Virus record (IMG/VR): IMGVR_UViG_3300005683_000013 | Reading direction: 5' to 3' (one strand) | From: an uncultured virus (IMG/VR IMGVR_UViG_3300005683_000013) | Lineage: Duplodnaviria; Heunggongvirae; Uroviricota; Caudoviricetes | Length of the DNA: 64,000 nt | Shown: positions 5,736-64,000 of the stretch, in pieces | Numbering within the stretch: position 1 is the stretch's first letter | How the letters are laid out: each line of letters opens with the position of its first letter | The notes under the pieces: generated by a model | Database searches by the model: none | What the model saw: the letters and a program-made list of their open reading frames with translations, nothing else | Told to the model about the DNA's origin: nothing | Position numbers and translations under genes: made by a program

Positions 5736-5739
5736 GTGA

Positions 5740-5928: not shown

Positions 5929-5937
5929 GAGAAGACT

Positions 5938-6555: not shown

Positions 6556-6595
6556 GTTGTTTCCTTTGTTACAGAGACAGTCTACAACAACGACA

Positions 6596-7452: not shown

Positions 7453-7583
7453 GAATCAGACCTTATCCTTTGTTGGGTTCAATTACACAAACGTCATCAG
7501 ATTGTAAGTTGAGGTTCAAAAAACACTTTTGCGTCTTCTTTACGTGCAAGTTCCAACAATTCGTTAGAATCGACAGAGATTAG

Positions 7584-9901: not shown

Positions 9902-10004
9902 AGGTTAATGTTATCATCACATGTGTCACAAGTACACTTTGTTGAGTGTAACTATTTTGTACAAGATCATCTTGTACAAAATAGTTACTTTAATTGAGAA
10001 GAAA

Positions 10005-13870: not shown

Positions 13871-14083
13871 TGTTTTACCTTTGTTGTTTGTTTGTTGTTT
13901 CCAGCCGATGATAAGACTATAAGCTTTCTGTCTTTGACCTTCACCACCCCTGATTTATTTTCTTATGAATATTCGAAAAGAAAATGCGAATATTACACTA
14001 TACCACACTTTCACACCCAGAACAGGAAAAAGTGATGGCCAGCATCCCGACAACATTCATTGTCGAAACCTGGCCATGAATTG

Positions 14084-14156
14084 TCGGACAACTCGGGATT
14101 GAACCGAGGACCGCCCGGATATAAGCCGGATGCTCTAACCGCTGAGCTATTGTCCG
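14084..14156 (-). tRNA. tRNA-Ile(UAU)
   Basis: Cloverleaf CGGACAA/TTGTCCG, anticodon loop CT-TAT-AT, GTTCAATCC. Confidence 0.85.
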
Positions 14157-21786: not shown

Positions 21787-22071
21787 TTAGAAGCTAAATT
21801 GTCGTTGAATAAGCTCAGTCATTGCAGACTGAAACCTTGGATCTCTTGCAGTCGACGTCACCTTATCATCATCCACTGGATCACCAGAGGCCTCTGCAAA
21901 GGCAATCGCAAACTTTTTCATGATTCGCAACACATGATTTCTTGCACTTGCATGATTCATGGGTTGACCGAGTTTAGTCATGTGTTCTGAAATTGTTCGA
22001 TAGTTTGCTCCGTCATCATCGACGACGGTCGCATAACCAACAGAAACTTTCTTTCCTTTCGGCATACTCAT
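21787..22071 (-). CDS. HTH protein resembling sigma region 4.2
   Basis: [12 protein letters not shown]...[19 protein letters not shown]-coupled to sigma gene. Confidence 0.55.
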
Positions 22072-22874
22072 TTGAGAGAAATTCCCTTCTTCAAGTTTTC
22101 AAGTTCTTCAGTTGTTATTGGAAAGTCTTGAGAATTTGTCGGATCTTCTGTTATCCCAAAGCGTAGTCGCAAGATAATCGATTCTTTCGCTGATAGGTTT
22201 TTTAGCACCTGTCTAGTGACAGCAAGCAATTGTTTTTCTGCAACTCGAGCAAATGGGTCACCGTTCGCTGAATTGTCAACAATTGAATGACCGATCGTTC
22301 TTTCGTTATCACCACCCGTCGATTTTCTAGACATTTGTGGAGATTCCAGCGAAAGAACCTCACGTCCGCTTTGAACAGTGGCTCTAACAACTTTTTCGCT
22401 AGCTCCGATTAGCTCAGCAAGATCTTCAGCACTTGGCTCACAACCAAACTGTCGCTTATAATCTTCAGCCGCAGCAATTAGTTTATTTTGCAAGCCAGCA
22501 GCATGAGCAGGCAAACGAATTGTCTTACGACGTTTTAGGATAAGTTGTTGGATTGCCTGTTTAATCCACCAAGTTGCATAAGTTGAAAAACGAAAACCTT
22601 TTTTGTAATCAAACTTATCGACAGCTTTGATAAGCCCAAGATTACCTTCTTGAATCAAGTCTTCAAGAGGAATCCTCGACTTACGAAACTGTTTGGCGAT
22701 GGAGACGACAAGACGAAGGTTTGAACAAATAAGCTTGTTTTTTACCGTCTTCTTCTTTTTTTCGTCTGCAGTCTCGACTTCGGCAAAAAGCGACATACTT
22801 GCATCATGCTCAATACGAGGAGTCTTGTTAATTTCTTCAAAATACCAAGCAACAGTGTCTTTAGTTCCAAACAT
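22068..22874 (-). CDS. sigma-70 family RNA polymerase sigma factor (RpoD-like regions 1.2-4.1)
   Basis: [47 protein letters not shown]. Confidence 0.92.
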
Positions 22875-26790: not shown

Positions 26791-26875
26791 TGGTGCCGGT
26801 GGTGGGACTCGAACCCACATGTCTTTCGACGACGAATTTTAAATTCGCTCCGTATGCCAATTCCGGCACACCGGC
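26791..26875 (-). tRNA. tRNA-Leu(UAA)
   Basis: Cloverleaf with long variable arm, loop TT-TAA-AA, encoded CCA. Confidence 0.9.
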
Positions 26876-26886
26876 AAGTGTGTCAA

Positions 26887-27153
26887 CTAAATCTTCTTTT
26901 GCTCTTGCAACCTAAAACCCTTGGGTGTCCTGTGCCAAGAACACTCAATATGGTTCTGCACCCACTGTTTTGTCTCCTCTTTTGAGAGATGACCCAACAC
27001 TGACAAGTTATTGTCCCAAGTCGTTTGAAACGTTCGTTCAAGAAGAGGTTTGCTGATCGGCCAAACGTTTGATTCACAACGCAGAATGAGATAACTGTTA
27101 CCTGTCATCGTAACGTTCTGAATCTCAAGAGCCATGTGCAGTTCATTTGCCAT
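26887..27153 (-). CDS. hypothetical protein
   Basis: GAGGT RBS. Confidence 0.6.
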   Translation of the reverse strand: MANELHMALEIQNVTMTGNSYLILRCESNVWPISKPLLERTFQTTWDNNLSVLGHLSKEETKQWVQNHIECSWHRTPKGFRLQEQKKI

Positions 27154-27187
27154 GAAACACCTCTCTTAGATAAAGTGATTAACTATG

Positions 27188-27271
27188 TGCTGGTGGTGGG
27201 ACTCGAACCCACAAGACCTTGCGGTCGATTGATTTTAAATCAACTCCGTATACCGATTTCGGCACACCAGC
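27188..27271 (-). tRNA. tRNA-Leu(UAA), second copy
   Basis: GCTGGTG/CACCAGC, loop TT-TAA-AA. Confidence 0.88.
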
Positions 27272-27280
27272 GAACTCATG

Positions 27281-27487
27281 TCATCGTTCTACGATAAATG
27301 ACAATCGATATTCAGATCGATTCTCTTTTCTAATTATCACCATTGGGACTGCTCCATCTTGACCGTGTGTTGGTGGAAGATCCGCAAGCAACGCTGTCAA
27401 ATAAGTGATAACTCCAAGTGCCTCTTTTTTAGAGAATTTGACGACTTGAAATTGAGGAATATTTTCTGGAATGATTAATTCTGCCAT
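27281..27487 (-). CDS. hypothetical protein
   Basis: ORF with promoter motif upstream. Confidence 0.55.
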   Translation of the reverse strand: MAELIIPENIPQFQVVKFSKKEALGVITYLTALLADLPPTHGQDGAVPMVIIRKENRSEYRLSFIVER

Positions 27488-27543
27488 TGTTTGACCATGA
27501 AATATACTTTATCATAACACAAACTAACTTTCACGGTTAGCGG

Positions 27544-27616
27544 CTCCCAAGGTAGGGATCGAACCTTCAACGTCTCGATTAATAATCGAGGGGCTCCACC
27601 TTTGAGCTACTCGGGA
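27544..27616 (-). tRNA. tRNA-Asn-like with anticodon AUU
   Basis: TCCCGAG/CTTGGGA-G, stem CTCGA/TCGAG, loop TT-ATT-AA; one T-stem mismatch. Confidence 0.65.
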
Positions 27617-27639
27617 ATATTGTTAGAATTACATACCTG

Positions 27640-27713
27640 TCAGAGTGGCGAGAATTGAACTCGCAATCTCGGCTTCTCCACGAAGCCGTGCCGTATCATT
27701 AGACTACACTCTG
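27640..27713 (-). tRNA. tRNA-Pro(UGG)-like, atypical anticodon arm
   Basis: CAGAGTG/CACTCTG-A, intact T arm, arm CGGCTTC-GTGGA-GAAGCCG. Confidence 0.55.
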
Positions 27714-27716
27714 AAA

Positions 27717-27789
27717 ACTGCATTGACAGAATCGAACTGTCGATTTCCATCTAATATTAGAGGAGGTGTTGCCATTACACCAAGTGCAG
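27717..27789 (-). pseudogene. degenerate tRNA-like element, anticodon undetermined
   Basis: D arm GTGT-AATGGCA-ACAC and T arm GACAG-TTCGATT-CTGTC intact; anticodon arm irregular. Confidence 0.55.
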
Positions 27790-27861
27790 TTTTGGTTGTA
27801 AACTAAAGAAACTTACTACGACATCATAATGAATTAGCAAGTATCACGTTTACAACGCAAG

Positions 27862-27935
27862 CGTCCTCGACACGATTCGAACGTGTGACCGATGGCTTAG
27901 AAGGCCATTGCTCTATCCAGCTGAGCTACGAGGAC
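27862..27935 (-). tRNA. tRNA-Arg(UCU)
   Basis: Canonical cloverleaf, loop CT-TCT-AA. Confidence 0.92.
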
Positions 27936-28049
27936 ATTGATCGTTGATCAAAGTCTTACATCAACGATCAGATTATTTATCCAACTCTTGCATAGATAAT
28001 CTTGACGAAGTTTGATCAGAGCTTTAGGCATAGACTTACACTTCGTCAG

Positions 28050-28132
28050 TGGAACGGGTTGGATTTGAACCAACGATAGGCGGAGCCACTTGATTTACAG
28101 TCAAGCCCTTTTGACCACTCAGGCACCGTTCC
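28050..28132 (-). tRNA. tRNA-Tyr(GUA)
   Basis: Loop CT-GTA-AA, long variable arm. Confidence 0.9.
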
Positions 28133-28176
28133 ATAATTACACTATATTACATATCACGTTCAGATTCACTTATTTG

Positions 28177-28415
28177 TGTCTCAGAAGGGAATCGAACCCT
28201 CACGACATTGACAAAAGAACGCTTAGAACGAGCTTCCCTCCCTCGGCAGTTCGCGGCCAGACCCAGTTTGTTACCAAACGTGGCGAGTTTCGGTGCATCC
28301 GCAAATCAGTGTTCTACCTCCACCATGAGAGTTTGCTCTCACAGCAGCTTCAACGCCCCTCTTCTCGAGGCTAATTGTTCCGTTTACAATTGCGGCGCCA
28401 GTTGCTTGCTGAGAC
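28177..28415 (-). ncRNA. ~240-nt structured RNA with tRNA-like acceptor stem and T arm
   Basis: GTCTCAG pairs with CTGAGAC-A; GAGGG-TTCGATT-CCCTT; several internal hairpins. Confidence 0.6.
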
Positions 28416-28437
28416 TTAATCTTTCAAAGAGCACTAG

Positions 28438-28522
28438 CGGAAGGTGTGAGATTCGAACTCACGGACCCTTTCGAGCCGGCGGTATTCAAAGCCGCTGCCA
28501 TCGACCACTCGGCCAACCTTCC
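28438..28522 (-). tRNA. tRNA-Ser(UGA)
   Basis: GGAAGGT/ACCTTCC-G, loop TT-TGA-AT, long variable arm. Confidence 0.88.
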
Positions 28523-49979: not shown

Positions 49980-51179
49980 ATGTTTACGTACCAGTTCAAA
50001 TTATTACCTTCGAAAGAGACACAAAGTCTTCTTTGGAAGCATGCTAATCGTTTGAATTTGTTGTATAACCGTTTTTTGAATGAGCGAATTGAAAATTACT
50101 CTGCTCATAAAGTCGACAATTCAGTTAAACTGATAACGTCATATGATCAAAGCAAGCAGTTACCAATTCTAAAATCTCAAAAAGAGTTTGAAGATCTAAA
50201 AGGAATACACTCTCAAGTTTTACAAGCCGTTATTAAACGTTTAGATAAAGCTTATAAAGCGTTCTTCAGTAGATGCAAAAAGAAATCCACACCAGGATTT
50301 CCCAAATTTAGATCTTGCAAAGACTTTTTTGGTCTTCTGTATCCTCAAAATGGGTACAAAATCAAAGACAACTTCTTTGTCACAAAGAATTACGGAAAGA
50401 TCAAGTTTAATAAAAACAGGGAAATATTAGGCAAAATCAAACAAGTCTATATTTCAAATAAGAACAACGTTTTCTACATTAGCATTGTGACTGATCATTC
50501 TTATACGATAACAGAAAGAAATTCTAACATTCTAGCAATAGATTTAGGATTGAATAACTTAGTCGTGGGAAAAGATAACAATGGAAAGATCGTAACAATA
50601 AAGAATGTTGGTCATGCAAAACATTACAGAAAAAAGATCTCAAAACTTCAAAGCATAAAAGATAAGTTACCGTCACAAAAAACAAATGGAAAAGTAAACA
50701 GATCAAGGAAACACAAGAAACTAAGTCAAAAAATACAACGATTGTATGAGTTGAAAAATCGTAAAATTAATGATTTTCAACACAAAGTATCTCATCGATT
50801 ATCTCATCAATATGATACAATCATTGTAGAAGATTTGTCAGTCAAGAAGATGTCAGAGTCTGACATCACATGTCTAAATCGAAACATCAGAGACGCAAAG
50901 TTAGGTCAGTTTCTAACGTTCTTGGGTTATAAAACACATTCACTAATCACTGTCAATCCTTGTAACACAAGTAAGACGTGTAATAGATGTGGACATGTTA
51001 ACAAGAATCTGAAACTAAGCGACAGACAAATCAAATGTCCGGTATGCGGTCATGAATATGATCGAGATGAGAATGCAGCAGAAAACATATATTGCTTGGG
51101 ACAAGCCATCCTTGATTGTCATGATCAAGGATCAGTGACAAGANNNNNNNNNNNNNNNNNNNNNNNNGCGTCTTATTGA
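49980..51179 (+). mobile_element. tnpB: IS200/IS605-family TnpB RNA-guided nuclease (no TnpA adjacent)
   Basis: YQFKLLP, PKFRS, RuvC motifs AIDLG / IVEDL / DRDENAA, CNRC...CPVC; 3' end in N gap 51144-51167. Confidence 0.92.
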
Positions 51180-51407: not shown

Positions 51408-51763
51408 TTATCACCTACGTATTCTTGAATTTGTTTGACAGTGTCATTGTGACTAGAGATTGTTTTTGCAAGCTTATGTTTATAAACGTAATGTGCCAGT
51501 TGGTTCGCTGCAGCCAACGCTCCAGCAAATATCATGTTAATGAAACAAATTGTAAATATGTCTATGTGTAGTCTGGTGCCAACCAATAAGACACCCACAC
51601 AAAAGAACGTGTATCCCAACATAAACTTACAAGCAAGACTGTGTGAATAAGACCCAATTGCAAGTTGAGTGATTTTTTCAAGCCTTTCAGAATAAGTCTT
51701 GATTAGGTTTTTTGGAACTTTGTCCCAAGCGACTGCACTTGTTGATGTTTCAATTTCAATCAT
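51404..51763 (-). CDS. two-TM membrane protein
   Basis: Two hydrophobic segments; coupled to groEL. Confidence 0.65.
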   Translation of the reverse strand: MIEIETSTSAVAWDKVPKNLIKTYSERLEKITQLAIGSYSHSLACKFMLGYTFFCVGVLLVGTRLHIDIFTICFINMIFAGALAAANQLAHYVYKHKLAKTISSHNDTVKQIQEYVGDK

Positions 51764-53367
51764 TCATTCTCCACGATGACAGCGTCCAAGGAAAGAAACG
51801 TTGATGCAACGGATGATGCGTTTTGCAACGCTGTCCGTGTCACCTTCACTGGATCGATGATCCCACAATCAATTAAATTGACCCACTCTCCGTTTGCGGC
51901 GTTGTATCCATATGGAACATTATATGTTCTCATTCGTTCAATGATCACCTCATGAGAAACGTCGGCGTTACGACAAATTTGTCGAAGAGGTTCTTGACAT
52001 GCCTTCTTGATCAACTGGACGCCGGCAAGAAAACTTTGTGTTGATTCTGATGGCAGATCAAAGTTTTCTTCACAAACATGAAACAATGCTGATCCCCCAC
52101 CTGGAACGATACCTTCATCGACGGCGGCACGAGTTGCATTGAGAGCATCTTCAATTCGATATTTTCGCTCTTCCATTTCAACTTCTGTTGTGCCACCGAC
52201 TTTGATGATTGCAACACCTGAAGCAAGCTTGGCAATCCGATGTCGAAGAATGTTTCGTTCTTCAGCTGTGAGTGTCACATCAGAACTTTGTGTTTTTAGC
52301 TCAGCGACACGGTCTTGAATTGCAACCGCAGTCTTTCCTGTCGCAACGATCGTTGTCATCTTTGCGTCGACGATAATTTTCTTCGTCAATCCAAGGTGAC
52401 TCTTAACCCTCACATCTTCAAGCTTGATTCCAGAACCTGCACCGACCAACGTGGCGCCGGTCAACGTTGCGATGTCTTGAAGCAACTGATCTTTTAGCGC
52501 ACCGAATCCCGGTGCCTTAATTGCGACCACACGTAGTTGACCATGATTTTTATTCAAAATCAACCCTTGAAGCGCCTCACCTTCAATTTCATCAGCAACA
52601 ATCAACAACGATTTATTGTTTTTCTTAACATCTTCTAACAACGGCACGATTGATGCCAAAGTTGAAATTTTCTTGTCTGTCACAAGAACACATGCGTCAG
52701 CGTACGCAGCTTGCATCTTTTCGTTATTTGTGACAAAATACGGACTAAGATATCCTCTTTCAAATTGCATGCCTTCGACGACGTCCATTGTCGTGGCCAT
52801 TCCTTTTGCATCCTCAACTGTGATGATGCCGTCACGACCGACTTTTTTCATTGCATCGGCAATGAGCGTTCCAATGTCTGAATCTCCGTTTGCAGAAATC
52901 GTTCCAATCTGGACAATCTCATCAAATGACTCTATTTGTTTAGCAATCGCATTCAATTTACCGATCACAGCACTCACAGTCCATTCAATTCCCCTGATGA
53001 GCTCTGTGGTGTTATATCCAGCAGCGACAAACTTCAACCCTTCAACAATCATTTCTTTTGTGAGAACTGTGGCTGTCGTAGTGCCGTCACCAGCAACCTC
53101 ATTTGTTCTTTGTGCTGCTTCACGAATCAATTCAGCACCCATTCTTTGAATGGGAATTTTTAGGTTTATTGATTTGCTAACAGTCACACCGTCTTTTGTG
53201 ACAAGAGGGACGCGACCGTCCCTTTGAATGAGAACGCATTTTCCTTTTGGTCCCATGGTACAACTCACTGCATTTGCTGCAGTCAAAAGACCTATGACAA
53301 GAAGTTCACGTGCCTCTCTTCCAAAAAAAATGTTTGTTGTTTTTCCTGCGCAATCGTTTTCTGTCAT
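51760..53367 (-). CDS. groEL: chaperonin GroEL
   Basis: TMGPKG, TKDGVTV, AGDGTTTAT, GMQFERGYLSPYF, GIVPGGG. Confidence 0.97.
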   Translation of the reverse strand: MTENDCAGKTTNIFFGREARELLVIGLLTAANAVSCTMGPKGKCVLIQRDGRVPLVTKDGVTVSKSINLKIPIQRMGAELIREAAQRTNEVAGDGTTTATVLTKEMIVEGLKFVAAGYNTTELIRGIEWTVSAVIGKLNAIAKQIESFDEIVQIGTISANGDSDIGTLIADAMKKVGRDGIITVEDAKGMATTMDVVEGMQFERGYLSPYFVTNNEKMQAAYADACVLVTDKKISTLASIVPLLEDVKKNNKSLLIVADEIEGEALQGLILNKNHGQLRVVAIKAPGFGALKDQLLQDIATLTGATLVGAGSGIKLEDVRVKSHLGLTKKIIVDAKMTTIVATGKTAVAIQDRVAELKTQSSDVTLTAEERNILRHRIAKLASGVAIIKVGGTTEVEMEERKYRIEDALNATRAAVDEGIVPGGGSALFHVCEENFDLPSESTQSFLAGVQLIKKACQEPLRQICRNADVSHEVIIERMRTYNVPYGYNAANGEWVNLIDCGIIDPVKVTRTALQNASSVASTFLSLDAVIVENE

Positions 53368-53419: not shown

Positions 53420-54355
53420 TCACGCAAACTTCAATCCAAACTTATTTTGCAACGCAATCAACGAAAGATTTTTCAATTTTGCCTCAACCTCAACGTCAAT
53501 CGTGTTGGCCTTGAGAGCCTCTAGCTGACACTCAGGAATATAATTGATATAGTTTGAGTGTTTCCTACGCTGAGAGAAAGAAGAATTTTCTAGGCCTGGT
53601 TCTGTGTTTGCAACATGCTGCAAGGGTTTGACGTAGGAAGGCCACGTACGAGAGGCCACGTCGAACGCTTGTTGCATCGTAAGAGATCCTGGGTTGAAAA
53701 CGTGATGGTGCGAGTCAAAGACAACTGGAACGCCGGTTGATTGAGAGACGGCGACGAGTTCCTCGACATTGCCAACACTTTCACAGTTTTCAAGAGTGAG
53801 CCGAGAACGTATGCCATGTGGCAACGTTTTAATGGTGTCAATTAAATTTGAGATGCGGCCGCCGACGCCAGCGTGAATGTTGATTGCGTAATGTGGCGAT
53901 CGATCAAACCCACATGCATCAAATATCCAAGCATGACGTTCGAGGTCGGTGATGGCATTTTGAATGACGTCATCACGAACAGAATTCAATACACAAAATT
54001 GTCCAGGATGAGAACTTATGCGCATCTCATGTTCACGACAATAATCACCAATACGCTTATACACGTTACGAAGTTGATCATTGTCCCAATACTCACGTGG
54101 AACACGATCACCCAACGGAATGGTGTCACTTGACATACGAAAATGCCTGATACCTAACGCAACAATCTTCGGAAGAATTTGAAGATGCATCTTGGCATTA
54201 TGCAAGTATGTGTCACGAATTTTCTGTTCAGAATACGCGCCGGAACGCAGACGACCTAATTGTAACGTCTTCGCCTCAAGAATGTTTTTATACGTGATAG
54301 AACCATTACGATGTGTAACTGTTTCGATAAACTGGCAACAAAGGCCTAGGGACAT
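53420..54355 (-). CDS. uvsE: UV DNA damage endonuclease
   Basis: FRMSS, HPGQF.VLNS, LTLEN, FDSHH, HS.YI, VEAKLK. Confidence 0.92.
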   Translation of the reverse strand: MSLGLCCQFIETVTHRNGSITYKNILEAKTLQLGRLRSGAYSEQKIRDTYLHNAKMHLQILPKIVALGIRHFRMSSDTIPLGDRVPREYWDNDQLRNVYKRIGDYCREHEMRISSHPGQFCVLNSVRDDVIQNAITDLERHAWIFDACGFDRSPHYAINIHAGVGGRISNLIDTIKTLPHGIRSRLTLENCESVGNVEELVAVSQSTGVPVVFDSHHHVFNPGSLTMQQAFDVASRTWPSYVKPLQHVANTEPGLENSSFSQRRKHSNYINYIPECQLEALKANTIDVEVEAKLKNLSLIALQNKFGLKFA

Positions 54356-54389: not shown

Positions 54390-55205
54390 TCACTCTTGAG
54401 GGGCTTTTTCTAACGCTCTTTCGTAGAAACTGACGGCTCGTTTTAGCACTTTCCGTTTATTTTCCTCGCTCCAGTGTTTTCTTGCACGTTTATCAAGATA
54501 TGTGGTCATGAATTTATCCACGAATTGATGGACGTCATTTCCCATGATCTCTTGCCATTTTGATAAAGATTTCACGCCTTTAAGCATGTTCTGAACCTTG
54601 ACAAAAGATTCATGAGTGTACGCGTTTGATTCTAAAGGATCATTTACATATGCGTTGAAATCTTTTTTCAATCCAGATTCTTTACGTGATTGTTTTGTTG
54701 CCGCCCTTGATTTTATGTACTCGTCAGTCAATCGACGAAAGTCCAAAACATGAACAAATTCATGAATGAAGTGCTCTCGATTTTCTGGTTTAGCAAAAGC
54801 CTTTGCAACAGTTGATTTAAACAGCTCGTTATAGAGTTTTGGATCTGACTCTGGGATGTCTAAAAACACTGAAATAATATATTGCCGTGCGTTTGTTTCA
54901 TCATCAAACGCAACGCCAGCTGTCGCAGAAACAGTCTTTTTTGTCTTAGAGACGTTTCTGTCTGTCAATTCTAAATACACACCTTCGTGTTCTGGTCTTG
55001 GCAACACGTTTTGAAGATAAAGGTATCTATACTTGCCTTTATCTTTCGTGAACGTTTGTGAATAAACTTTATCTGACGAATTCTGCAATTCATACAAGAG
55101 TTTTGAGATCGCAATATAACTGTTGTTCGCTGTCCTAAGATAGCGATCATCATTTTCACGTTCCATGACAAGCTCTATGTATTCACGCAATAATTCGTCA
55201 GACAT
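54390..55205 (-). CDS. HExxH-containing hypothetical protein
   Basis: N-terminal LLREYI; HEFVH...Y.NDPLE.NA. Confidence 0.65.
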   Translation of the reverse strand: MSDELLREYIELVMERENDDRYLRTANNSYIAISKLLYELQNSSDKVYSQTFTKDKGKYRYLYLQNVLPRPEHEGVYLELTDRNVSKTKKTVSATAGVAFDDETNARQYIISVFLDIPESDPKLYNELFKSTVAKAFAKPENREHFIHEFVHVLDFRRLTDEYIKSRAATKQSRKESGLKKDFNAYVNDPLESNAYTHESFVKVQNMLKGVKSLSKWQEIMGNDVHQFVDKFMTTYLDKRARKHWSEENKRKVLKRAVSFYERALEKAPQE

Positions 55206-55214
55206 GTACATTAA

Positions 55215-55631
55215 TTATTGTGTTGTACGTAAATCATATAGATACGCTAACGCATGATCGTTTGGTCTCGCATTTCCAGTTATACCCAAACATAACATTT
55301 CCCAAGCTCTGGCACCATACTCACCAATTCCGTGTAACTCAGATGCATGTGACCATTTGCCATTAACGTATTCTTGACAAAAACGTTTTAGAAGTTTTGT
55401 TCTCCTGTTGTAAAAACCAAGAGAACGAATTGTGGCCACGATGTCAACGTCATCAGCTTCTAATAACGCTTGTGGTGCTGGAAACTTCTCAAAGAAATCC
55501 CAAATCATCTTTTCAACTTGTGCTCGTTGTGTACAGTTTAAAAAGATACAAACAACGAGCACTTTCCATTGATCGGGCAAAAAGTGTTCTTGTAAAAGTT
55601 TACGAGAATTATCGTGATTCTTTAATTTCAT
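55215..55631 (-). CDS. MBD4-like HhH-GPD DNA glycosylase
   Basis: WKVLVVCIFLNCT, LGFYNRR, LHGIGEYG, DHAL. Confidence 0.85.
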   Translation of the reverse strand: MKLKNHDNSRKLLQEHFLPDQWKVLVVCIFLNCTQRAQVEKMIWDFFEKFPAPQALLEADDVDIVATIRSLGFYNRRTKLLKRFCQEYVNGKWSHASELHGIGEYGARAWEMLCLGITGNARPNDHALAYLYDLRTTQ

Positions 55632-56937
55632 CGGCAGTGATTTGATCGTTTATGTCGCGCCAAACAGCTATTGGATTCTTTTCTTTGGCTGAACTTTTTG
55701 ACTTTACAGAAGATCTCTTTTTGACCTTGAATTTTGGAGTTGGATTTTCGTTCTCTTCTTCGATAAGATCATCATTTTTCAAGAGACGATCAACACGTTT
55801 TTGAAGTTCTTTCATCGAAGACAGCGCTTCTTCTTTGTTCATAAATCGTCGTCGTATGACGTATTCTCGAATAAACGCAATTGGCCAATTCTTGACATCA
55901 TCAAAAACTTCAATGTTGTCTTCACCAAGAATTGTTTTTGCAACAATATCATCGAGCTTTCGAACACAACAAATTTCATCAAACCGTCCTGGCCGCATTA
56001 GCGCGTTGTCAAGTTGATTTCTATCGTTCACTGTTGCGAACACGACCTTTACGTGATTGTGGAATCTCTCCAACATTTCAAGCAAGTGATCTTGAGAATG
56101 AGCTCGATCAAGATCATCAAGAATGATTGCATCGGGTTCAAAGATTTCGATCGTCTCAAAGATGTTTGTGTTATCAACCAAGTTAGAAACATCTTCAACT
56201 CTAATTCTAAGAGTTTTCAGCTTCAGTTTGTCAACAATCGATCTAGAAAGCGTGCTCTTTCCAGTTCCAGGAGGACCATAAAACAAAATCGTACGTGGAA
56301 CGCCAGCAGCGATCGTTCTCGTTAGATATGAGACGTACTTGTCTGCAAGTTCAGAAGGACGCGAGGGAATGTCTTCATCTTTCTGAAACCAGATTCGTGG
56401 GTTATCGTCATCACGTGGAGCGTTATTGCGTTGCATAACAATGAAATCATGTTTCATATTTTGCCATAACAACTTTTTGATTGCTCGTTTTGATTCTTCT
56501 AGACGATCAATTCTAGCAAACACATTTCCACTAGAACCACGTGACGGACCGCTTATGGTTGTCGCCCACGAAACTTTTTCGCCATCAACAATTGCCTCTT
56601 TGATACAAACATCTTTGTCTTGGGTGTGAATTGTCTTAACCTTACACGAACTGGAAATATTGTCAATGATAAAGTCTGCAAGAGCCATGCCATACATCTT
56701 GTCCCAATTGCTATCAAAGTACTCGTTTACGTATATGCCAATTGAATCAAATTGGCGATACAACACAAGACACCCTTTCAACGCGCTAAAGAACGAAGGT
56801 TCTTTTATAAAGGCTTGCGTTGTGTTGATAACTTCTTCAGCAATGGTCAACGATGTTTCAAGATCAGTGTTTGCAATACGATCATAAATCAATTTTAAAT
56901 TTGTCTTGAAATTAGAATAACGCTGCGAGTTTCCCAT
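55609..56937 (-). CDS. AAA+ ATPase
   Basis: YGPPGTGKS, ILDDLD, ALMRPGRFD. Confidence 0.85.
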   Translation of the reverse strand: MGNSQRYSNFKTNLKLIYDRIANTDLETSLTIAEEVINTTQAFIKEPSFFSALKGCLVLYRQFDSIGIYVNEYFDSNWDKMYGMALADFIIDNISSSCKVKTIHTQDKDVCIKEAIVDGEKVSWATTISGPSRGSSGNVFARIDRLEESKRAIKKLLWQNMKHDFIVMQRNNAPRDDDNPRIWFQKDEDIPSRPSELADKYVSYLTRTIAAGVPRTILFYGPPGTGKSTLSRSIVDKLKLKTLRIRVEDVSNLVDNTNIFETIEIFEPDAIILDDLDRAHSQDHLLEMLERFHNHVKVVFATVNDRNQLDNALMRPGRFDEICCVRKLDDIVAKTILGEDNIEVFDDVKNWPIAFIREYVIRRRFMNKEEALSSMKELQKRVDRLLKNDDLIEEENENPTPKFKVKKRSSVKSKSSAKEKNPIAVWRDINDQITADEIKESR

Positions 56938-57017
56938 ACATCAATCTTATTCTATCGCCACATTTTTTATAACAACTAGCTCGTTATATCAATCGTCTCA
57001 TTACCATTTAGATAGTT

Positions 57018-57482
57018 ATGAACATGAGAATGACTGTGAAACAACTTCGCTTTATCTTGTCTGAGGCGGTAGGTAATGAAATTGACACAAGGATCGCTGA
57101 ATTTACGAGAAACATCATAAACGTTTCAGAGAAATTTGTGAATTCATTGGTTGCCGATACCCGAGACGCCGCCGCAGCAAAACAATTACAAAAATTGAGC
57201 ACAGACGCAGCAAGTTACGCAAAATGGTTATTGGGTCGAAGAGAACCAAAAGGCGAACAATTTGCCATGCTAACAAAACTATGTGGCGATCTTGCTGCAT
57301 CGAGTGGATTTTGGTCGACACCATCGTTTTTAAACAAGCCACAACATGTAGAAAGCATGCAAAAAATCTTTCGTAAGATGCAATCAATCAGTGGACCATT
57401 GATGACAAAAACATCAAAGTCTGGCACTTACGCTAAAAAGAGCATAAGCATGGACGATGATTCAGAAAAAAAGATAGCATAA
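57018..57482 (+). CDS. hypothetical protein
   Basis: N-terminal MRMTVKQLRFILSE. Confidence 0.65.
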   Translation: MNMRMTVKQLRFILSEAVGNEIDTRIAEFTRNIINVSEKFVNSLVADTRDAAAAKQLQKLSTDAASYAKWLLGRREPKGEQFAMLTKLCGDLAASSGFWSTPSFLNKPQHVESMQKIFRKMQSISGPLMTKTSKSGTYAKKSISMDDDSEKKIA

Positions 57483-57697
57483 TCACGAATCTGGATAATA
57501 AATTGGCGTTATCCAGATTCCTTCATACGTTGTCAAATAACGACGTTTATCTTCTGAGTAATAGTCTTCAATAAATTGCAACGCTAACTCTTCATTTTCA
57601 AACTCTTGCAAAATTTCTGCCTTAAAACATGGCACAATTTTTTGACAAGAGTTTTTAATTTGTGTTTGTGCCATTGACATGACAGCGAATCGTTTGA

Positions 57698-58819
57698 TCA
57701 TTTTCTTCTCAAGCCTGAAAAAATCTGAATAATAATCGCAAAGACGCCAAACAACCACCCAAATATTAGCGGAATGACGCTTGTGTTTTTTGTGACCTGT
57801 TGAACAATTTCTTTGTGTTCTGGTTTGTAAGCTTGAATCTGAACCGTCGGAACGTCCTCTTCGATCATGACAGGTTCAATTTCATACACAGGTGACTCTT
57901 TTGGTTTTTCAACGACGTGAAGTGAAGTGTCTGTCATCCACGATCGTTTTGCAATTTCCAAAGAGTTTTTCGGCAACTCGATCCCAAACAATTTCTCAAC
58001 TGTTTCTCTTATTTCATTGTAACGTCTTGACCAAATTCCAATTCCAGAATTAATCACAAGTTGATAACAAATATCAAGACACCATGCGGGCGACCATTTT
58101 TCAAACTTTGATAACTTGACAGCGATGCCAATCATCTTCGTCGCGGCTGCAGGATTATTCACAGCATATGAAACACAAATTGCTTTAATCGCGCCAAACC
58201 ATTTATCAGTGCCAGGATCATCAACTGTTGGAAATAACACATCCTTTTTTACACCGTACCACGATAACAACCGTGGCACTGTAAAATCAGTTTGAGCAGA
58301 ACATGCTTCGGCGTTTTCCCAAATATTCGCCATCGAAGCGGCCCAGGTTTTTGCGTATGTCTTTCTTGATTCTGACCACGTACCAAACGTTCCAGGACCT
58401 CCCAAGTACAATTTCTCTTGAAGGGCACGAGAATTCACTTCTTGATTTCCAAGGAAGAACCTATATTTGCCTGCACCGTTTTTTCTAAAGTCGGCTGAAG
58501 CCATCTGGAGAGCTGGTTTGAGTGTGGTTATAACATACTCAAGACCACACCGTTCGGCAACGGCACCTAACATGTCGCATACAGAAAATTGACCGCCGTC
58601 GCACCACTGGATGACGCCAACTGTCATGATACAAGAATCATAACAATTCACTGCATCAAAGTGACCTCCTTCGGCTGCGGTGGTGACAGCCATGAGTTTT
58701 TGTTCAAATGACGCAGAATCGTCAATTTGTGGAAATTTAACTTTCCCCCAATAAACGGGTCCTTCATAATCCTTGTAACTACCCCAACGTACGTCTTTTA
58801 CTGTGACTGGCATAACCAT
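57698..58819 (-). CDS. putative lysozyme-fold cell-wall hydrolase with C-terminal TM
   Basis: AEGGHFDAVNCYD...TVGVIQW; hydrophobic tail ending RRK. Confidence 0.5.
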   Translation of the reverse strand: MVMPVTVKDVRWGSYKDYEGPVYWGKVKFPQIDDSASFEQKLMAVTTAAEGGHFDAVNCYDSCIMTVGVIQWCDGGQFSVCDMLGAVAERCGLEYVITTLKPALQMASADFRKNGAGKYRFFLGNQEVNSRALQEKLYLGGPGTFGTWSESRKTYAKTWAASMANIWENAEACSAQTDFTVPRLLSWYGVKKDVLFPTVDDPGTDKWFGAIKAICVSYAVNNPAAATKMIGIAVKLSKFEKWSPAWCLDICYQLVINSGIGIWSRRYNEIRETVEKLFGIELPKNSLEIAKRSWMTDTSLHVVEKPKESPVYEIEPVMIEEDVPTVQIQAYKPEHKEIVQQVTKNTSVIPLIFGWLFGVFAIIIQIFSGLRRK

Positions 58820-58847
58820 ACGTATCAATACATGTTGATTAAACGAC

Positions 58848-58870
58848 TGAAGCACCCAAAAGGTGCTTCA
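58848..58870. terminator. hairpin
   Basis: TGAAGCACC-CAAAA-GGTGCTTCA. Confidence 0.5.
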
Positions 58871-58897
58871 AAACATGATTGAAATTTGTAAGACTAG

Positions 58898-59740
58898 TCA
58901 GTCTTTCTCAAACGTGCCAACAAACTTTTTCCACGACTTGTCATTTATGATGCTGTTGAATTGATACGTGGTAAACACGTTTTTCAGAGCATCCCAATCT
59001 GTGATGCCATCACTTGCAACATACTCACGAACCGCGGGTGTCTTGCTAAATCCAATCAACGACTTGTTGAGATCAAACCTTTCTTGACGACCCGGTTTTT
59101 CAGAAAGATACTTCTTGAGAAGTTCTGGATAGTCAACTGTCATTAATTTGTGTGCTGTTTTATCACCACATCCAGCAATTCCAGGAACATTATCGGTGCC
59201 ATCGCCCCTGAGACATTTCCAATCAACGTAGTCATATTGTGGTGCGACGACAAATTCTTTCTTCACTGGATTGTAGAGACTAAAACGAGATGTCGACGAA
59301 TATTCTTGGACCGACTGAGTGAAATCGGTGTCAGATGACGCCACAACGACTGAATGTCCCTGACCAAGAAACTCTCCTGCTAAGCAGTGAATCACATCAT
59401 CACATTCAAAATCAGGATGTTTGATGACGGTGATCGGTAGGTGTTTTAGCAACTGAATGACTTCAGTTGCGTCAGCGTAAAACTCAGTGTTCTCTGCAAG
59501 TTTTGATTCGTAATTCTTGTCGTTTTTGTCAAGTTGACGATTTGCTTTATAACTCTCCTGAAGATCATAACGATGTTTCGGTCGACCTTCAAGAACAAAA
59601 CAAACCTTATCAGCCTTGAGCACATCAACAATTGATCGAAGATTTCTGAAAAAATTGAAAATCAAAGCATGCGGGCCCTCATTGAATCCAACTCGAGCCC
59701 GATGCATAAAATTCATTCCGTCAATTAGCAGGACGTTCAT
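58898..59740 (-). CDS. 5'-3' exonuclease / flap endonuclease (phage RNase H type)
   Basis: LLIDG, YKANR, ECDDVI, SSDTDF, GDGTDNVPGI.G.G.KTA. Confidence 0.92.
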   Translation of the reverse strand: MNVLLIDGMNFMHRARVGFNEGPHALIFNFFRNLRSIVDVLKADKVCFVLEGRPKHRYDLQESYKANRQLDKNDKNYESKLAENTEFYADATEVIQLLKHLPITVIKHPDFECDDVIHCLAGEFLGQGHSVVVASSDTDFTQSVQEYSSTSRFSLYNPVKKEFVVAPQYDYVDWKCLRGDGTDNVPGIAGCGDKTAHKLMTVDYPELLKKYLSEKPGRQERFDLNKSLIGFSKTPAVREYVASDGITDWDALKNVFTTYQFNSIINDKSWKKFVGTFEKD

Positions 59741-59771
59741 GTCCTGAATCTATCATCACTAACACAAATGT

Positions 59772-60119
59772 TCACCACTCACCTCCACCAAAAGTGCTAA
59801 GACATGTCGAAGCGTGTATTTCATCACGACGTTTCTGAATAAAAGCGCGCCAGTCGTTGCCCGCTTTTTCACCAAATGTCTGATGCACTGTTGCTATGTC
59901 AGGAGCACCGTAACAATCATAACCAAAAAATAATGCTTGCCATTTCCCGTCAATAAAACCTTTTACATGCATCGGCTGACGAATTTTCTCAATCGCAGAA
60001 TTCATCTCACTTTCACTGCCAAATGATAGATGACCTCCATGCGTTCTATAAACATCATGACACGTTGTATCTGAACTATAGGTAAATGGGTTACACAATT
60101 TCATATAATTCACTTTCAA
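59772..60119 (-). CDS. hypothetical protein
   Basis: Coupled ORF. Confidence 0.55.
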   Translation of the reverse strand: MKVNYMKLCNPFTYSSDTTCHDVYRTHGGHLSFGSESEMNSAIEKIRQPMHVKGFIDGKWQALFFGYDCYGAPDIATVHQTFGEKAGNDWRAFIQKRRDEIHASTCLSTFGGGEW

Positions 60120-60730
60120 TGATGCGTTGGTTTTTCACCGCTTGACAACATTTTTTTGTATGCGTCCATAAACGGTTTCAGCCCACCATCAAGCACGGCC
60201 TGCACATAAGTCTCTTGATGATTTGTCACATGATCAATGACAAGATAGATAGGTGACATCATGTATGTACGTCGATACTCATCTGGAGTCGTACAATCAT
60301 TCGAAATGAACTGATTGTTCTTTTCAAAGGAATCAAGCGTAACGTTATCGTGATTACGCAAAATCACGTTATCATTAACTCCGAGGATGCGAACTGTTGC
60401 AAGACTCGATTGCTGATTACTTGTCGCAACAAGCCCAGAAGGAGAAACAAGATTGCTTTTTAGACAATGAATGCCGGCTTCTGGACTGTAAAGATCATGT
60501 GCTCCGTCACCTTCAAACAATATTGAAGCCAAATTAACATACTCATCAGAGTTCTGTACATCAACATATGAAATACCTAAGATTTCACATTTCAATCCGA
60601 GGTGCTCTGCACTACGAAGATACATGCGCATCAACGTTCGAACCCAGCTCGCAGAACGCAACCCTCCTGGACCTGCAGAGATGGTAAGAATCACAGAAGA
60701 ATATTGACAAATATCATCATTGTGTTGCAT
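60116..60730 (-). CDS. RF2-like peptide chain release factor fragment lacking the GGQ domain
   Basis: ISAGPGG...W...LMRMYLR, EAGIH.L, RTY...V.DH.T...VQAVLDG. Confidence 0.8.
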   Translation of the reverse strand: MQHNDDICQYSSVILTISAGPGGLRSASWVRTLMRMYLRSAEHLGLKCEILGISYVDVQNSDEYVNLASILFEGDGAHDLYSPEAGIHCLKSNLVSPSGLVATSNQQSSLATVRILGVNDNVILRNHDNVTLDSFEKNNQFISNDCTTPDEYRRTYMMSPIYLVIDHVTNHQETYVQAVLDGGLKPFMDAYKKMLSSGEKPTHH

Positions 60731-60934
60731 TTGTTACCTCGTAAAGACAACCTTACCACAACGCTGGTCACTTTTCACTCAAATCTTGATACAAAATCAA
60801 CTGGAACCATATTTGGGAATTGAATCCACATATCGAATTCCTCCTTCGACATCTTAAGGAACTCATGCAACGGAACGTCAGCACTTTTCTCATGCCATTC
60901 GTCAACAAGATCGTCAATGTCGATTGTTTTCATG

Positions 60935-61174
60935 TCAAATCTCCAAATAAGGTTTGATTTTTATTTCCCACCACAAATACACAGTGCACACTAATTTTTC
61001 GATGGTTGAAACTTGTCTGGTTCTGAGCCGCCGTGAACGTTTATATCCTGGCATTGGCTCATGGATTTCACCAGGATATATTGGCACGTAGTGTCTTCTT
61101 GAAAGAATAAGTTGTGCCGTCTTTATCGCCTGTTGTTTTGCAATTTCAAAATCATGTGACATCATCACCACCAC
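60935..61174 (-). CDS. hypothetical protein
   Basis: ORF track. Confidence 0.5.
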   Translation of the reverse strand: MVVMMSHDFEIAKQQAIKTAQLILSRRHYVPIYPGEIHEPMPGYKRSRRLRTRQVSTIEKLVCTVYLWWEIKIKPYLEI

Positions 61175-61539
61175 AAGTGTCCAAAATACTTCCCAAACAA
61201 TTGTGATGCTTTTTCGTGACGTTCCATGGTTTTGGGTGAAAAATCAGTCGACGACGAATCATCAAATCCTTCAAGATACCAAATGATTTCATCAATGATT
61301 GAATGCCACTCTTCAAGAGTCAAATCAAACGGTGTTCCATTGGTTTTCTTTCTGAAAACACGCAATCGTGGTAATATGTACGCGGCGGTGTTTTGAGCAA
61401 CGTTCCAACTCGCAGAATCATCCCAACCACGTGTCAATCGTTGAAACAAGAACTTGACTGCACGCTTCCTTGTCCTCAAAGGACCCTTAAAAATGCTTAC
61501 AACCAACTGTGGAATTGAAAAAACACATTCATTTTTCAT
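61165..61539 (-). CDS. hypothetical phage protein
   Basis: QRLTRGWDD...LFGKYFGHLW. Confidence 0.65.
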   Translation of the reverse strand: MKNECVFSIPQLVVSIFKGPLRTRKRAVKFLFQRLTRGWDDSASWNVAQNTAAYILPRLRVFRKKTNGTPFDLTLEEWHSIIDEIIWYLEGFDDSSSTDFSPKTMERHEKASQLFGKYFGHLWW

Positions 61540-61700
61540 TTTTTATCTCAACAGGAAAACACATTCATGACCATTATGAACAACTTTTATTGCTGACACT
61601 TTACTTGACAGTAAATGTAACATCAATGCACGGCGAAGGACTTCGTGTTTTGTCGTATCTAACTCAATTGCTAACTTTAAAAAATCGTTATGTGTCATGT

Positions 61701-62282
61701 CTAAAATCGACCACGACTGAGACTTTTTGCGATTGAAAATCGTGGATCTGCGTATCCTGTCCCGTAAATCCAACGCCAGTCACCGTAAGATCGATAACCG
61801 TAACTACCTATCTCGATTCCATTGAGTTCGAGATCGTAACCATCATATGTACCGCGCAAGTGGCAATCATCTCCGGGATGCAACGTATGAAAAAATGATC
61901 TAGCAATGCGTGCTGTTTCTATAATCTTTGAAGTGATGGCTTGTGGACTATCAAGTCCACCAGGACACGTATCGAATAATTCGACCTTCATAAAATATCG
62001 CTGATGTGTTTTATCAATCGCATCAGGACGAAAACACGGAGTAACAGCGACGTATTTACCATTGAGAGGTGTTCCATTCAACAACAAATGAATGAACGAC
62101 TGTTCTGCACTCCCAACCAAAAGTCCGTCTTGCGTTCTAAGCGGTACTACGTCAACTGGAAGCGTTACGTTGATCGCTTCTTCACATGCATACCAGGGAA
62201 CTTCAATATATTGATAACCTTCGGCGTGATAATAATCTATGGCTGCTGCGATATGATTCCAATATATCAAATTTTGCGACAA
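61701..62282 (-). CDS. minimal class II aminoacyl-tRNA synthetase-like protein
   Basis: GYQYIEVP, GSAEQ, TPCFR...FMKVEL, EIGS, GTGYADPR. Confidence 0.7.
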   Translation of the reverse strand: MSQNLIYWNHIAAAIDYYHAEGYQYIEVPWYACEEAINVTLPVDVVPLRTQDGLLVGSAEQSFIHLLLNGTPLNGKYVAVTPCFRPDAIDKTHQRYFMKVELFDTCPGGLDSPQAITSKIIETARIARSFFHTLHPGDDCHLRGTYDGYDLELNGIEIGSYGYRSYGDWRWIYGTGYADPRFSIAKSLSRGRF

Positions 62283-62291
62283 GTTACACTC

Positions 62292-62912
62292 CTATCTCTT
62301 TTGTTCAAGAATCATCTGTTGGATTATCTCTTTGGTCTCTTCAGAGTACTTGAAATATTTACAAGCATCGCTTGGAACTGTTGATCGAGCAAGGCGACGT
62401 TCTTCCTCAAACCGATGAACAAAGGAGTGCAATCCTTTGAGGGTTTCGATGTTGAAGGGACGTGCTTCGTACCCGACAAATTCCCATGTAGAGCCATGTC
62501 GGAGCGCTTCGGCTCGAACGCGTTCAGGATCCAGCTCACGGGGGTCCCCGAACATGACGAAAATGTTGAGATGAGGGGTTACCGGCTTGGGTTCGTAGTC
62601 TGGCTTGTACTTCCGGGCGAATTTCGCAAAGCGGTCTGTCATCTCCTTGGGGAGTGTTTGGGCCACAACGATACTCAAACGGCCATCGGCGGACTCTGAG
62701 TAGGCAAAGGCATCAGCTACTCGTGCTACATCATGAATCCCTTCCTTTTGAATCCCTAATGGGTAGAAGAAGTCATAGAGCTTATCACGTAAATCCCACA
62801 ATATATTGAAATACGGAGTGTCGCAATGTGGCTGATGCATCTTTAAAACATCTTGTTGCCACTCTTTTAACATCAATTGATCAAATGTTTCTCTATCCAT
62901 GATAACGATCAT
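62292..62912 (-). CDS. hypothetical protein
   Basis: 206-aa ORF. Confidence 0.65.
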   Translation of the reverse strand: MIVIMDRETFDQLMLKEWQQDVLKMHQPHCDTPYFNILWDLRDKLYDFFYPLGIQKEGIHDVARVADAFAYSESADGRLSIVVAQTLPKEMTDRFAKFARKYKPDYEPKPVTPHLNIFVMFGDPRELDPERVRAEALRHGSTWEFVGYEARPFNIETLKGLHSFVHRFEEERRLARSTVPSDACKYFKYSEETKEIIQQMILEQKR

Positions 62913-63063
62913 ATCATGTTATGAAACAATTTACATCTCCCTTTCTCCATCTTGGAAAGCACTCTTTGTCAAGTCTGACATCTTTTTCAGATCTGACATC
63001 GTGCAACCGTAACTCACCACGACGTGCAGAACCAATTCAATTTTGTTTGACATGAGTCAAACT

Positions 63064-63432
63064 TTATACGGAGAGTGGGCGAATTACAATCACTTCATAT
63101 CCATATGATTCAGCCGTCTTAATCATGTTTTTGGTGCCTGGGCTACTCGCCGATTCATCAAGAAAAGCCACGACAACATCAGGATTCGTTTCCAACAACA
63201 TTTTCTTGTTGCGAATCGGGCCTGCGGCTTTTCCCATTTTTTTCCAATCGTCACGTGAGACAGGATACTTGACAATCTTAAACCCTAACTCTTCGGCAAC
63301 GACGTGTGCAATCGTGTCAGCACCAATTGCATCACCATGAACGATTGTCGTTCCGCTAGGAAACTTTGACAAGACATCAATGACAAGTTGTTCGTCTTTC
63401 CAATGACGACTTCCGCTGACCAATACAATCAT
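63064..63432 (-). CDS. SLOG family protein (YspA/DUF2493-like)
   Basis: VSGSR, VHGDAIGAD, AGPIRN..M, GTKNM. Confidence 0.85.
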   Translation of the reverse strand: MIVLVSGSRHWKDEQLVIDVLSKFPSGTTIVHGDAIGADTIAHVVAEELGFKIVKYPVSRDDWKKMGKAAGPIRNKKMLLETNPDVVVAFLDESASSPGTKNMIKTAESYGYEVIVIRPLSV

Positions 63433-63662
63433 AGTTTTTTCCAAACGTTGAAAGGAACCATTTTCAATGTCGTTTTTGACAAGTCAATCGAGTCCCAAAA
63501 GGCTTTCAACTCTTCATCTGAATTTATCTTACCACTTTGCACATACTTTTTCACAAGTTCCTGCAACTCGGTTTTGACGTCTTCTTTCTTTTGATACGAT
63601 GGTGAAATTTTCACCATCTCTTCAAGTATGATTTTACGAATTGTGTTTATTGAAATTTTCAT
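63429..63662 (-). CDS. hypothetical protein
   Basis: N-terminal MKISINTIRKIILEE. Confidence 0.6.
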   Translation of the reverse strand: MKISINTIRKIILEEMVKISPSYQKKEDVKTELQELVKKYVQSGKINSDEELKAFWDSIDLSKTTLKMVPFNVWKKL

Positions 63663-64000
63663 ATCTGTTCTCAAATATCGCAATGTGTCTATCTGCGACT
63701 TTGTCCCAAGAATTTTCCTTGACGTAATTATTTTGTGTAACGATCTGTTGTGATTTCACTTTTTGATCAGTCAACACGCTTTCAAGCGCTGATGAAAGTT
63801 CTTCCACTGTCTCAGCTTTAATTGTCGGTATGTCGCTAAAGTGATTCACATTTGAACTGACGGTTGCAACACCTTTGCTGAACGCCAACCGAGCGGCACC
63901 ACTTGCACCGAAAACTTCATGCTGAGGATGAGACACGTACGGGAACACGACTGCCTGATTCGTTCGCAAGAACGAATCAAGAGACTCGTCAGACTGAAAC
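63634..64000 (-). CDS. GT-B glycosyltransferase (GT4-like), C-terminal part
   Basis: VVFPY...SGAARLA...VSS...NSWDKVA; runs off window. Confidence 0.7.
   Translation of the reverse strand, partial: FQSDESLDSFLRTNQAVVFPYVSHPQHEVFGASGAARLAFSKGVATVSSNVNHFSDIPTIKAETVEELSSALESVLTDQKVKSQQIVTQNNYVKENSWDKVADRHIAIFENRYENFNKHNS

Follow-up and report, generated by a model that had tools for sequence, protein, structure and literature searches.

The single-module class-I release factor derivatives ArfB and ICT1 retain the catalytic GGQ domain without the decoding superdomain, and PrfH, a small protein of the release factor family (about 200 residues, without domain 1), rescues damaged ribosomes together with RtcB and also keeps its GGQ domain. 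Full-length release factor 2 (RF2) proteins have been published in megaphages (PMC6784885, PMC13037316), where the passages concerned discuss RF2 within TAG recoding. In land plants, passages of PMC5897788 describe the plastid protein PrfB3, the product of a nuclear gene, as an RF2 relative without SPF and GGQ that has lost termination, has been kept, and acts on the petB 3' untranslated region. Here we describe P0001, a gene found in a stretch of 64,000 nucleotides from an uncultured virus (IMGVR_UViG_3300005683_000013; Caudoviricetes), hereafter called the window and belonging to a contig of a stated 134,075 bp; of the RF2 homologue encoded by this gene, only the decoding superdomain (domains 2 and 4) is left. 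This natural protein with the decoding superdomain alone is the reciprocal fragment of the ArfB/ICT1 case. Literature searches on phage or truncated GGQ-less release factors did not turn up any account of a phage protein of this kind; Mora et al. reportedly dealt with truncated RF1 and RF2 in 2003.

P0001 is an uninterrupted open reading frame (ORF) of 204 codons on the minus strand (60116..60730) with a TGA stop, and the preliminary description of this DNA, which was made from the letters alone, was right in calling the frame intact and its product an RF2 homologue without the GGQ and N-terminal domains, since a profile built from 45 full-length RF2s, Pfam and NCBIfam agree on this assignment. 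Only 11 residues precede domain 2 (the PCRF part, residues 12-129, 60344..60697, minus strand), which matches positions 117-228 of the RF2 profile with 58.5 bits, and domain 4 (residues 155-200, 60131..60268, minus strand) matches positions 315-360 with 41.9 bits and carries the landmarks R154-T155-Y156, D166-H167-V168-T169, G182 and F187. Positions 1-116 (domain 1) and 229-314 (domain 3, with GGQ) of the profile have no counterpart in P0001. Model confidence and alignment place a linker where domain 3 would be (residues 130-154, 60269..60343, minus strand), and the beginning of this linker can still be aligned to the first domain-3 strand of RF2, just ahead of the GGQ site. Likewise, pairwise alignment with Bacillus subtilis RF2 put residues 11-158 on 125-266 and residues 154-193 on 323-362.

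The Pfam scan assigned PCRF to residues 11-90 (E 2e-11) and gave no match of P0001 to the RF-1/GGQ domain (PF00472) at E <= 1. Among NCBIfam models, TIGR00020 (prfB) matched with E 1.7e-19 and 70.1 bits, under its family cut-off of 370, and the RF1 models were weaker (28.3 and 26.1 bits); PHROG 19918, whose function is not annotated, matches P0001 as well. Sequence matches to solved structures comprised 38 distinct chains, all named RF1 or RF2. A release factor split within the window was ruled out, as the other stop-to-stop frames of the 64 kb contain no remnant of domain 1 or domain 3 (next best E 0.94).

The AlphaFold2 model of P0001, built on a 50-row alignment, reached a predicted local distance difference test score (pLDDT) of 78.0 and a predicted template modelling (TM) score of 0.78, with low confidence only at residues 1-6, 100-104 and 122-148, the last of these below a pLDDT of 50. 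In a Foldseek search of the PDB, the best 50 of 54 matches (E <= 0.001) were all class-I release factors, at query TM scores of 0.61-0.71. Superposition with VIA-align gave Z 21.6 and 2.2 Å over 153 residues for B. subtilis RF2 (9fy1_8), and Z 20.9 and 2.6 Å over 157 residues for Escherichia coli RF2 (1gqe), where model residues 6-201 fall on chain residues 120-365; across the RF2 structures, Z ranged from 20.0 to 21.6 and the root-mean-square deviation from 2.2 to 2.6 Å over 153-158 residues. These matches identify P0001 as RF2 superdomain 2/4 joined by a predicted disordered linker of about 25 residues (about 122-148), in line with the earlier remark that domain 2 and domain 4 motifs are connected by a short linker. 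PrfH structures, in contrast, gave Z 10.9-11.6 only, far below RF2; P0001 lacks the GGQ domain of PrfH, the PrfH model of NCBIfam did not match it at E <= 1, and no RtcB was present among the neighbouring ORFs scanned.

The preliminary description had proposed a search for the same deletion in other phages, and had envisaged a decaying pseudogene should all close homologues prove full-length. The only close relative found is equally truncated: the P0033/P0157 90% cluster (8 members, including P0157, of 198 residues, and P0158), hereafter allele B, P0001 being allele A. Both alleles lack domain 1, keep D-x-x-x-(D/E)-(S/T)-F-(E/N) as a remnant of the first domain-3 strand with the rest of domain 3 gone, and have an extra 'YV' insertion as well as an insertion after a conserved His, at an identity between P0001 and P0033 of 32% (64/200; E 2e-20). 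The predicted model of allele B folds alike (pLDDT 79.8), with a disordered linker at 123-145.

Allele B occupies the same slot as P0001 in a metagenome locus (L002, a 297-kb contig) that is collinear with the window, the slot of both alleles lying between the homologue of a 128-residue ORF and a 5'-3' exonuclease gene. Protein identities between the two loci are 98.9% for GroEL, 95.0% for an AAA ATPase, 96.9% for a 385-residue protein, 97.8% for a 273-residue protein, 94.8% for an aminoacyl-tRNA synthetase (aaRS)-like protein and 78% for the exonuclease, and about 30% for the RF2-like proteins. By blastn, the flanks align at 84% over 63023-60772 and at 89% over 59731-54400 of the window, whereas the segment between them (59732..60771) has no nucleotide similarity to its counterpart in L002 (9927-10618, 692 bp). 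This variable cassette contains in the window the RF2-like gene and a second gene of 110 codons (59772..60104, minus strand, ATG at 60104; 115 codons from TTG 60119), and in L002 allele B only. The 110-residue product, which is not encoded in L002, has no family in Pfam, PHROGs, PADLOC or Atlas. The cassette has three states in near-identical phages, namely allele A with the 110-codon ORF, allele B alone, and no RF2-like gene, and such an allele swap at a fixed slot marks a hot spot for mining accessory genes. Allele A was also recovered in contigs of three further studies (an estuary, an organism-labelled run and a metagenome), the X2 and X6 copies having one change (60517 A>T, F72I), also seen in P0151, and the X7 copy none within its covered parts.

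From structural work on RF2 it is known which positions read the three bases of the stop codon, and the conserved ones checked here are all replaced in P0001. Column counts were taken over the 45 full-length RF2s in the 50-sequence alignment. After GG(T), all 45 RF2s have an acidic residue, which is replaced by Arg25 in P0001 (G22-G23-L24-R25) and by Phe in allele B. At the S-P-F columns (S in 45/45, P in 42/45, F in 40/45), P0001 has S98-G99-L100 and allele B keeps T-P-F; at the R-(H/Q)-T columns (R and T each in 43/45), P0001 has Q106-Q107-S108, and the motif is lost in both alleles. The SPF motif, which belongs to the decoding loop of domain II, recognises the stop codon according to passages of PMC8012679. 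The statement in the preliminary description that SPF reads SPS holds for the letters, since S96-P97-S98 exists, and fails for their position, because the aligned counterpart of S-P-F is S98-G99-L100, two positions on. That placement comes from the 50-sequence alignment and a pairwise alignment with Thermus thermophilus RF2, and the B. subtilis alignment needs a gap; judged by the aligned letters, the motif is lost in P0001 under either alignment.

The conserved structural core of RF2 is kept in P0001 (W29, R35-M36-Y37, E84, G86, H88, R154, Y156, P160, D166, T169, G182 and F187), and allele B retains other hallmarks of RF2, with an aromatic residue at the switch-loop Trp position, QIRTY and VKDHRT. 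The net charge of both P0001 domains falls within the RF2 range and does not discriminate. As its codon-reading residues are replaced, P0001 cannot read UGA or UAA in the way of RF2, and as domain 3 with GGQ is missing, it cannot hydrolyse peptidyl-tRNA. The view that it is catalytically dead and not a working release factor is therefore upheld, the fold of superdomain 2/4 being what is left once the GGQ domain and domain 1 are gone.

Compared with RF2 proper (TIGR00020; 1gqe, 9fy1, 4v5e), P0001 has homologous domains 2 and 4 with a conserved core, and differs in having neither domain 1, domain 3 with GGQ, S-P-F, the acidic residue nor R-(H/Q)-T, and in scoring 70.1 bits against the cut-off of 370. 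The RF2s of huge phages (L078-L092; Lak megaphages in passages of PMC6784885) are likewise phage-borne, but have GGQ and SPF in frames of 364-391 residues stop-to-stop at 10 of 11 loci, L086 having only an 80-residue frame. Moreover, in those passages megaphages with RF2 are tied to TAG recoding, whereas the phage studied here uses the standard code. The likeness to PrfB3, compared by description only, lies in a gene that was kept after SPF and GGQ had gone, and is one of kind and not of common descent; PrfB3 appears to form a separate lineage.

An affinity to the huge-phage proteins is suggested by the motif GGL....WV, which is present in 11 of 12 huge-phage RF2s and complete in allele A (GGLRSASWV); allele B (GCMFSVDWV) keeps only WV, and of the other full-length RF2s, 3 have WV and 2 have GGL, and none combines the two. 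A phage-borne RF2 is the likely ancestor. In a 57-row tree the end branches of the two alleles measure 6.66 and 5.66 against a median of 0.62, and the evolutionary rate of the RF2-like alleles is about ten times that of full-length RF2s.

When P0001 was searched against 1.84 billion representatives, 414 matches were obtained at E <= 0.001, with only P0001 itself below 1e-30; the remaining matches, at 28-45% identity, are mostly full-length RF2s, and P0033, at rank 33, is equally short. With a profile made from the two alleles, 664 proteins were found at E <= 0.001, and among the best 120 of these 664, PCRF occurs alone in only these two clusters, the other 118 also carrying PF00472. A word-index search returned only P0001 itself among 56 candidates. 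At 77 metagenome loci, a GGQ-bearing frame runs through the match in 68; the nine GGQ-less loci comprise L001, which is identical to the window, L002 with allele B, five matches at contig ends, and L037 and L060, where short frames on contigs of 1-2 kb match domain 4 only.

Five short RF2 predictions (P0108, 153 residues; P0150, 154 residues; P0099, P0109 and P0065) resemble P0001 in lacking domain 1 and GGQ, domain 2 being fused straight to domain 4. They differ in keeping the acidic residue and SPF (SPH in P0108) as well as RRHTSF in three of the five (LRHTSF in P0109, RRHVSF in P0065), their deletion boundaries are different, and, being 47-52% identical to each other, they resemble ordinary prfB. 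The majority are singletons from contigs of 0.6-3.7 kb, P0108 having 7 members and P0150 lying on a 50-kb contig, and they may be independent deletions or assembly artefacts. A profile search for mini RF2s found mostly ordinary RF2s, with 3 PCRF-only proteins among the 120 listed. Two PCRF-only clusters of the Atlas (163 residues, 93 members; 199 residues, 149 members), with scores of 0.88 and 0.87, below the counting level, may be related to the mini RF2 predictions.

We propose, with a probability of roughly 0.4, that P0001 acts as a non-productive RF2 mimic, which would occupy a site that normally takes RF2 superdomain 2/4 without bringing about peptide release. [quoted passage not shown] The outcome would be that an RF2-dependent host process is tuned or blocked, with phage termination at TGA and TAA left alone. 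Passages of PMC8012679 report that ArfA and BrfA recruit RF2 via superdomain II/IV, ArfA adding a beta-strand onto the superdomain, and that release in this case needs GGQ and not SPF. Because release with ArfA and BrfA is independent of SPF, a superdomain 2/4 lacking both GGQ and SPF could be drawn to non-stop or stalled ribosomes. In its most specific form, in which such a GGQ-less mimic would reach stalled or non-stop ribosomes independently of SPF, on its own or via an ArfA/BrfA-type recruiter, and would block RF2-dependent release or rescue there with normal termination untouched, the proposal is quite unlikely. TGA and TAA are both read by RF2, and these stops end 131 of the 147 non-overlapping ORFs of at least 60 residues in the window (82 TGA, 49 TAA, 16 TAG), so that a general blockade of RF2 is improbable.

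If P0001 does bind ribosomes, nature would have supplied a ready tool with which to probe or inhibit the decoding centre or RF2-dependent rescue, and molecular mimicry would be shown to be a means by which phages interfere with termination or rescue. A mimic that blocks rescue would be a naturally occurring inhibitor of ribosome rescue or of an immunity pathway linked to ribosomes, and an arms race with the host could then have left its mark in the 32%-identical alleles and the presence/absence polymorphism.

Several observations weigh against this proposal. Beyond the reading residues, further basic residues are lost in P0001 (R to N93, R to S96, K to I165 and R to V168), and domain 2 has 7 basic residues, where the 45 RF2s average 11.6; with conserved basic residues of allele A replaced in domain 4 too, ribosome contacts could be gone. 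The copy of allele B in L002 has an in-frame TGA where the others have Arg (CGA to TGA; MYL*FAEG), and both pieces of the split frame are recorded on three contigs each. In addition, a contig of the X19 data set joins position 60108 directly to 60774, so that the RF2-like gene and its leader (665 bp, 60109..60773) are absent. A nonsense variant and a precise absence mean that the gene can be lost, and is accessory rather than essential. The truncated family is also very rare: the 14 records found among GenBank phages are all below 60% identity, none covers 80% of P0001 and none comes closer than 35% identity, IMG/VR yielded no confirmed relative of P0001 or P0157, and the species genomes no confirmed relative. 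Finally, the phylogeny does not firmly unite the alleles. In the 57-row tree they are not joined, allele B falling inside the viral RF2 clade, made up of IMG/VR contigs of 36-481 kb (Shimodaira-Hasegawa approximate likelihood-ratio test, SH-aLRT, 100), with allele A unplaced; in a 25-row tree on 201 shared columns they join (94) beside the viral clade (98), two long branches meeting there under a long-branch warning.

X19 is an RNA library that may also hold DNA, and its contigs cover the flanks and not the P0001 gene. TTCACT stands at both edges of the absent segment (60109-60114 and 60774-79), and the bridging contig, of 460 nt, covers 361 nt of the neighbouring ORF with 13 differences. At the junction, six bases separate the upstream TGA from ATG 60104. 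This arrangement resembles a normal gene boundary in a strain that lacks the RF2-like gene, and the X19 coverage is taken to reflect such a strain and not to bear on transcription; the junction suggests ATG 60104, and not TTG 60119, as the start of the 110-codon ORF, which this strain retains.

Less probable than a ribosomal mimic, and on the whole unlikely, is that the RF2 fold has been exapted off the ribosome, for specific RNA binding or for binding or decoying a host protein in anti-defence or take-over. The plant PrfB3, in which SPF and GGQ were lost and petB mRNA is stabilised (passages of PMC5897788), provides a precedent, allele A is changed in the checked reading residues and at several conserved basic positions, and a hypervariable presence/absence cassette with branches of 5.7-6.7 against a median of 0.62 is typical of accessory genes that face variable host factors. 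On the other hand, allele B keeps T-P-F, the switch-loop aromatic residue, QIRTY and VKDHRT, for which no off-ribosome use is obvious, and no family other than release factors was matched, PADLOC giving 0 families at E <= 0.01 for P0001, P0157 and 8 neighbours. If P0001 does not bind ribosomes, it would be the second RF2 scaffold, after the plant PrfB3, recruited to another job. The least likely of the readings is the one closest to the original idea of an A-site decoy, in which the protein would be directed to stop codons and compete with host RF2 at UGA and UAA, raising read-through or stalling termination. It is true that exactly the module by which RF2 docks on the stop codon has been kept, that occupancy would be non-productive without GGQ, and that allele B retains T-P-F; but the acidic residue invariant in 45/45 RF2s is Arg in allele A and Phe in allele B, R-(H/Q)-T is gone from both and S-P-F from allele A, and the phage itself relies on stops read by RF2 in 131/147 ORFs, including the TGA of P0001, with no visible recoding and no suppressor among the nine tRNA genes of the window.

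It is very unlikely that P0001 is what is left of a formerly complete phage prfB, without function and in the course of being lost, although two of the four domains and the checked reading residues are missing, evolution is very fast, the family is tiny, and a nonsense allele (L002) and a complete absence (X19) exist. Both alleles, at 32% identity, keep frames of about 200 codons, have their domains bounded alike and are predicted with confidence to contain an RF2 core; an allele this divergent, of the same architecture and in the same slot, indicates that P0001 is not a fresh pseudogene. When uniform substitution of the P0001 coding sequence was simulated to 57% identity to the start, which corresponds to half of the A-B divergence if equally shared, only 13 of 2000 frames were still open, indels being ignored; that two lineages both stayed open argues for long-term selection against nonsense mutations. 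A good Shine-Dalgarno sequence and a near-invariant gene in three independent studies also speak against decay. The gene is selected but dispensable and evolves fast; it specifies an RF2 decoding-domain protein within a hypervariable cassette of the phage. The remaining weight belongs to none of these four readings.

The Shine-Dalgarno sequence of P0001, GAGGT (60736..60740, minus strand), lies 5 nt ahead of its ATG. The gene had also been credited with its own promoter, GTGAAA-N17-TAAGGT (60750..60778, minus strand), and this claim was not borne out. The letters are present, GTGAAA at 60778-60773 matching 4/6 and TAAGGT at 60755-60750, after 17 nt, 3/6 of the sigma-70 consensus, which makes 7/12 positions, no better than chance; the site overlaps the TGA of the upstream ORF and is not reported by the promoter scan, whose threshold is 9/12. 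Across the region, 14 promoter-like sites were counted against 8.7 +/- 3.0 in shuffles. As P0001 lies inside a run of same-strand (minus) ORFs from about 51.2 to 64 kb, co-transcription with its neighbours is a simpler reading than a private promoter. The phage encodes a sigma-factor-like gene at 22068-22874.

With respect to the genetic code, the frames of the window are open under table 11. Stop-codon recoding was considered for the ORF-poor middle of the window and rejected, since readthrough of TAG, TGA or TAA gave no coherent gain and small ORFs are packed there. The nine tRNA genes (26791-28522 and 14083-14156, minus strand; 8 clustered), among which there is no suppressor, comprise Ile-tat, two Leu-taa, Asn-att, Pro-tgg, Arg-tct, Tyr-gta, Ser-tga and one with a four-base anticodon (aata, 27716-27790). 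TGA is strongly preferred as a stop in the window as a whole, and in the block from 51 to 64 kb TGA stops are mostly followed by T.

Around the cassette, this block encodes a GroEL-type chaperonin of 535 residues (51760-53367, minus strand; 98.9% identical in L002 and at most 47% in GenBank phages), UvdE (53420-54355), the AAA ATPase (55609-56937), the 5'-3' exonuclease (58898-59740) and, three genes from the RF2-like gene, the class-II aaRS-like protein of 193 residues (61701-62282, minus strand), which matches PHROG 4806 'histidyl tRNA synthetase' (E 1e-38) without a Pfam match and shares about 42% identity with proteins encoded by jumbo phages of Caulobacter and Brevundimonas. Positions 55000 to 64000 of the window have no nucleotide match among GenBank phages. 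The window also encodes a SLOG protein and a methyltransferase, most other ORFs being without a family. A TnpB/IS605 OrfB-type gene (49980-51179, plus strand; PHROG 506, E 1.9e-80; OrfB_IS605 and a Cas12f1-like TNB domain) is missing at the syntenic place in L002, a mobile-element insertion polymorphism, and a run of N occupies 51144-51167.

Immediately upstream of the RF2-like gene, the segment 60775-61174 (minus strand) contains two ORFs in the window (79 residues, TGA, one base, then ATG and 52 residues in another frame), where L002 has a single ORF of 128 residues (9537-9923); in X19, 109 bp at 60908-61018 are replaced by 14 other letters, so that the segment represents a gene with a frameshift or else another variable site. 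L002 also carries about 5.4 kb extra (2268-7690) in place of 22 bp of the window (63046-63023), which forms another accessory island of the same gene block.

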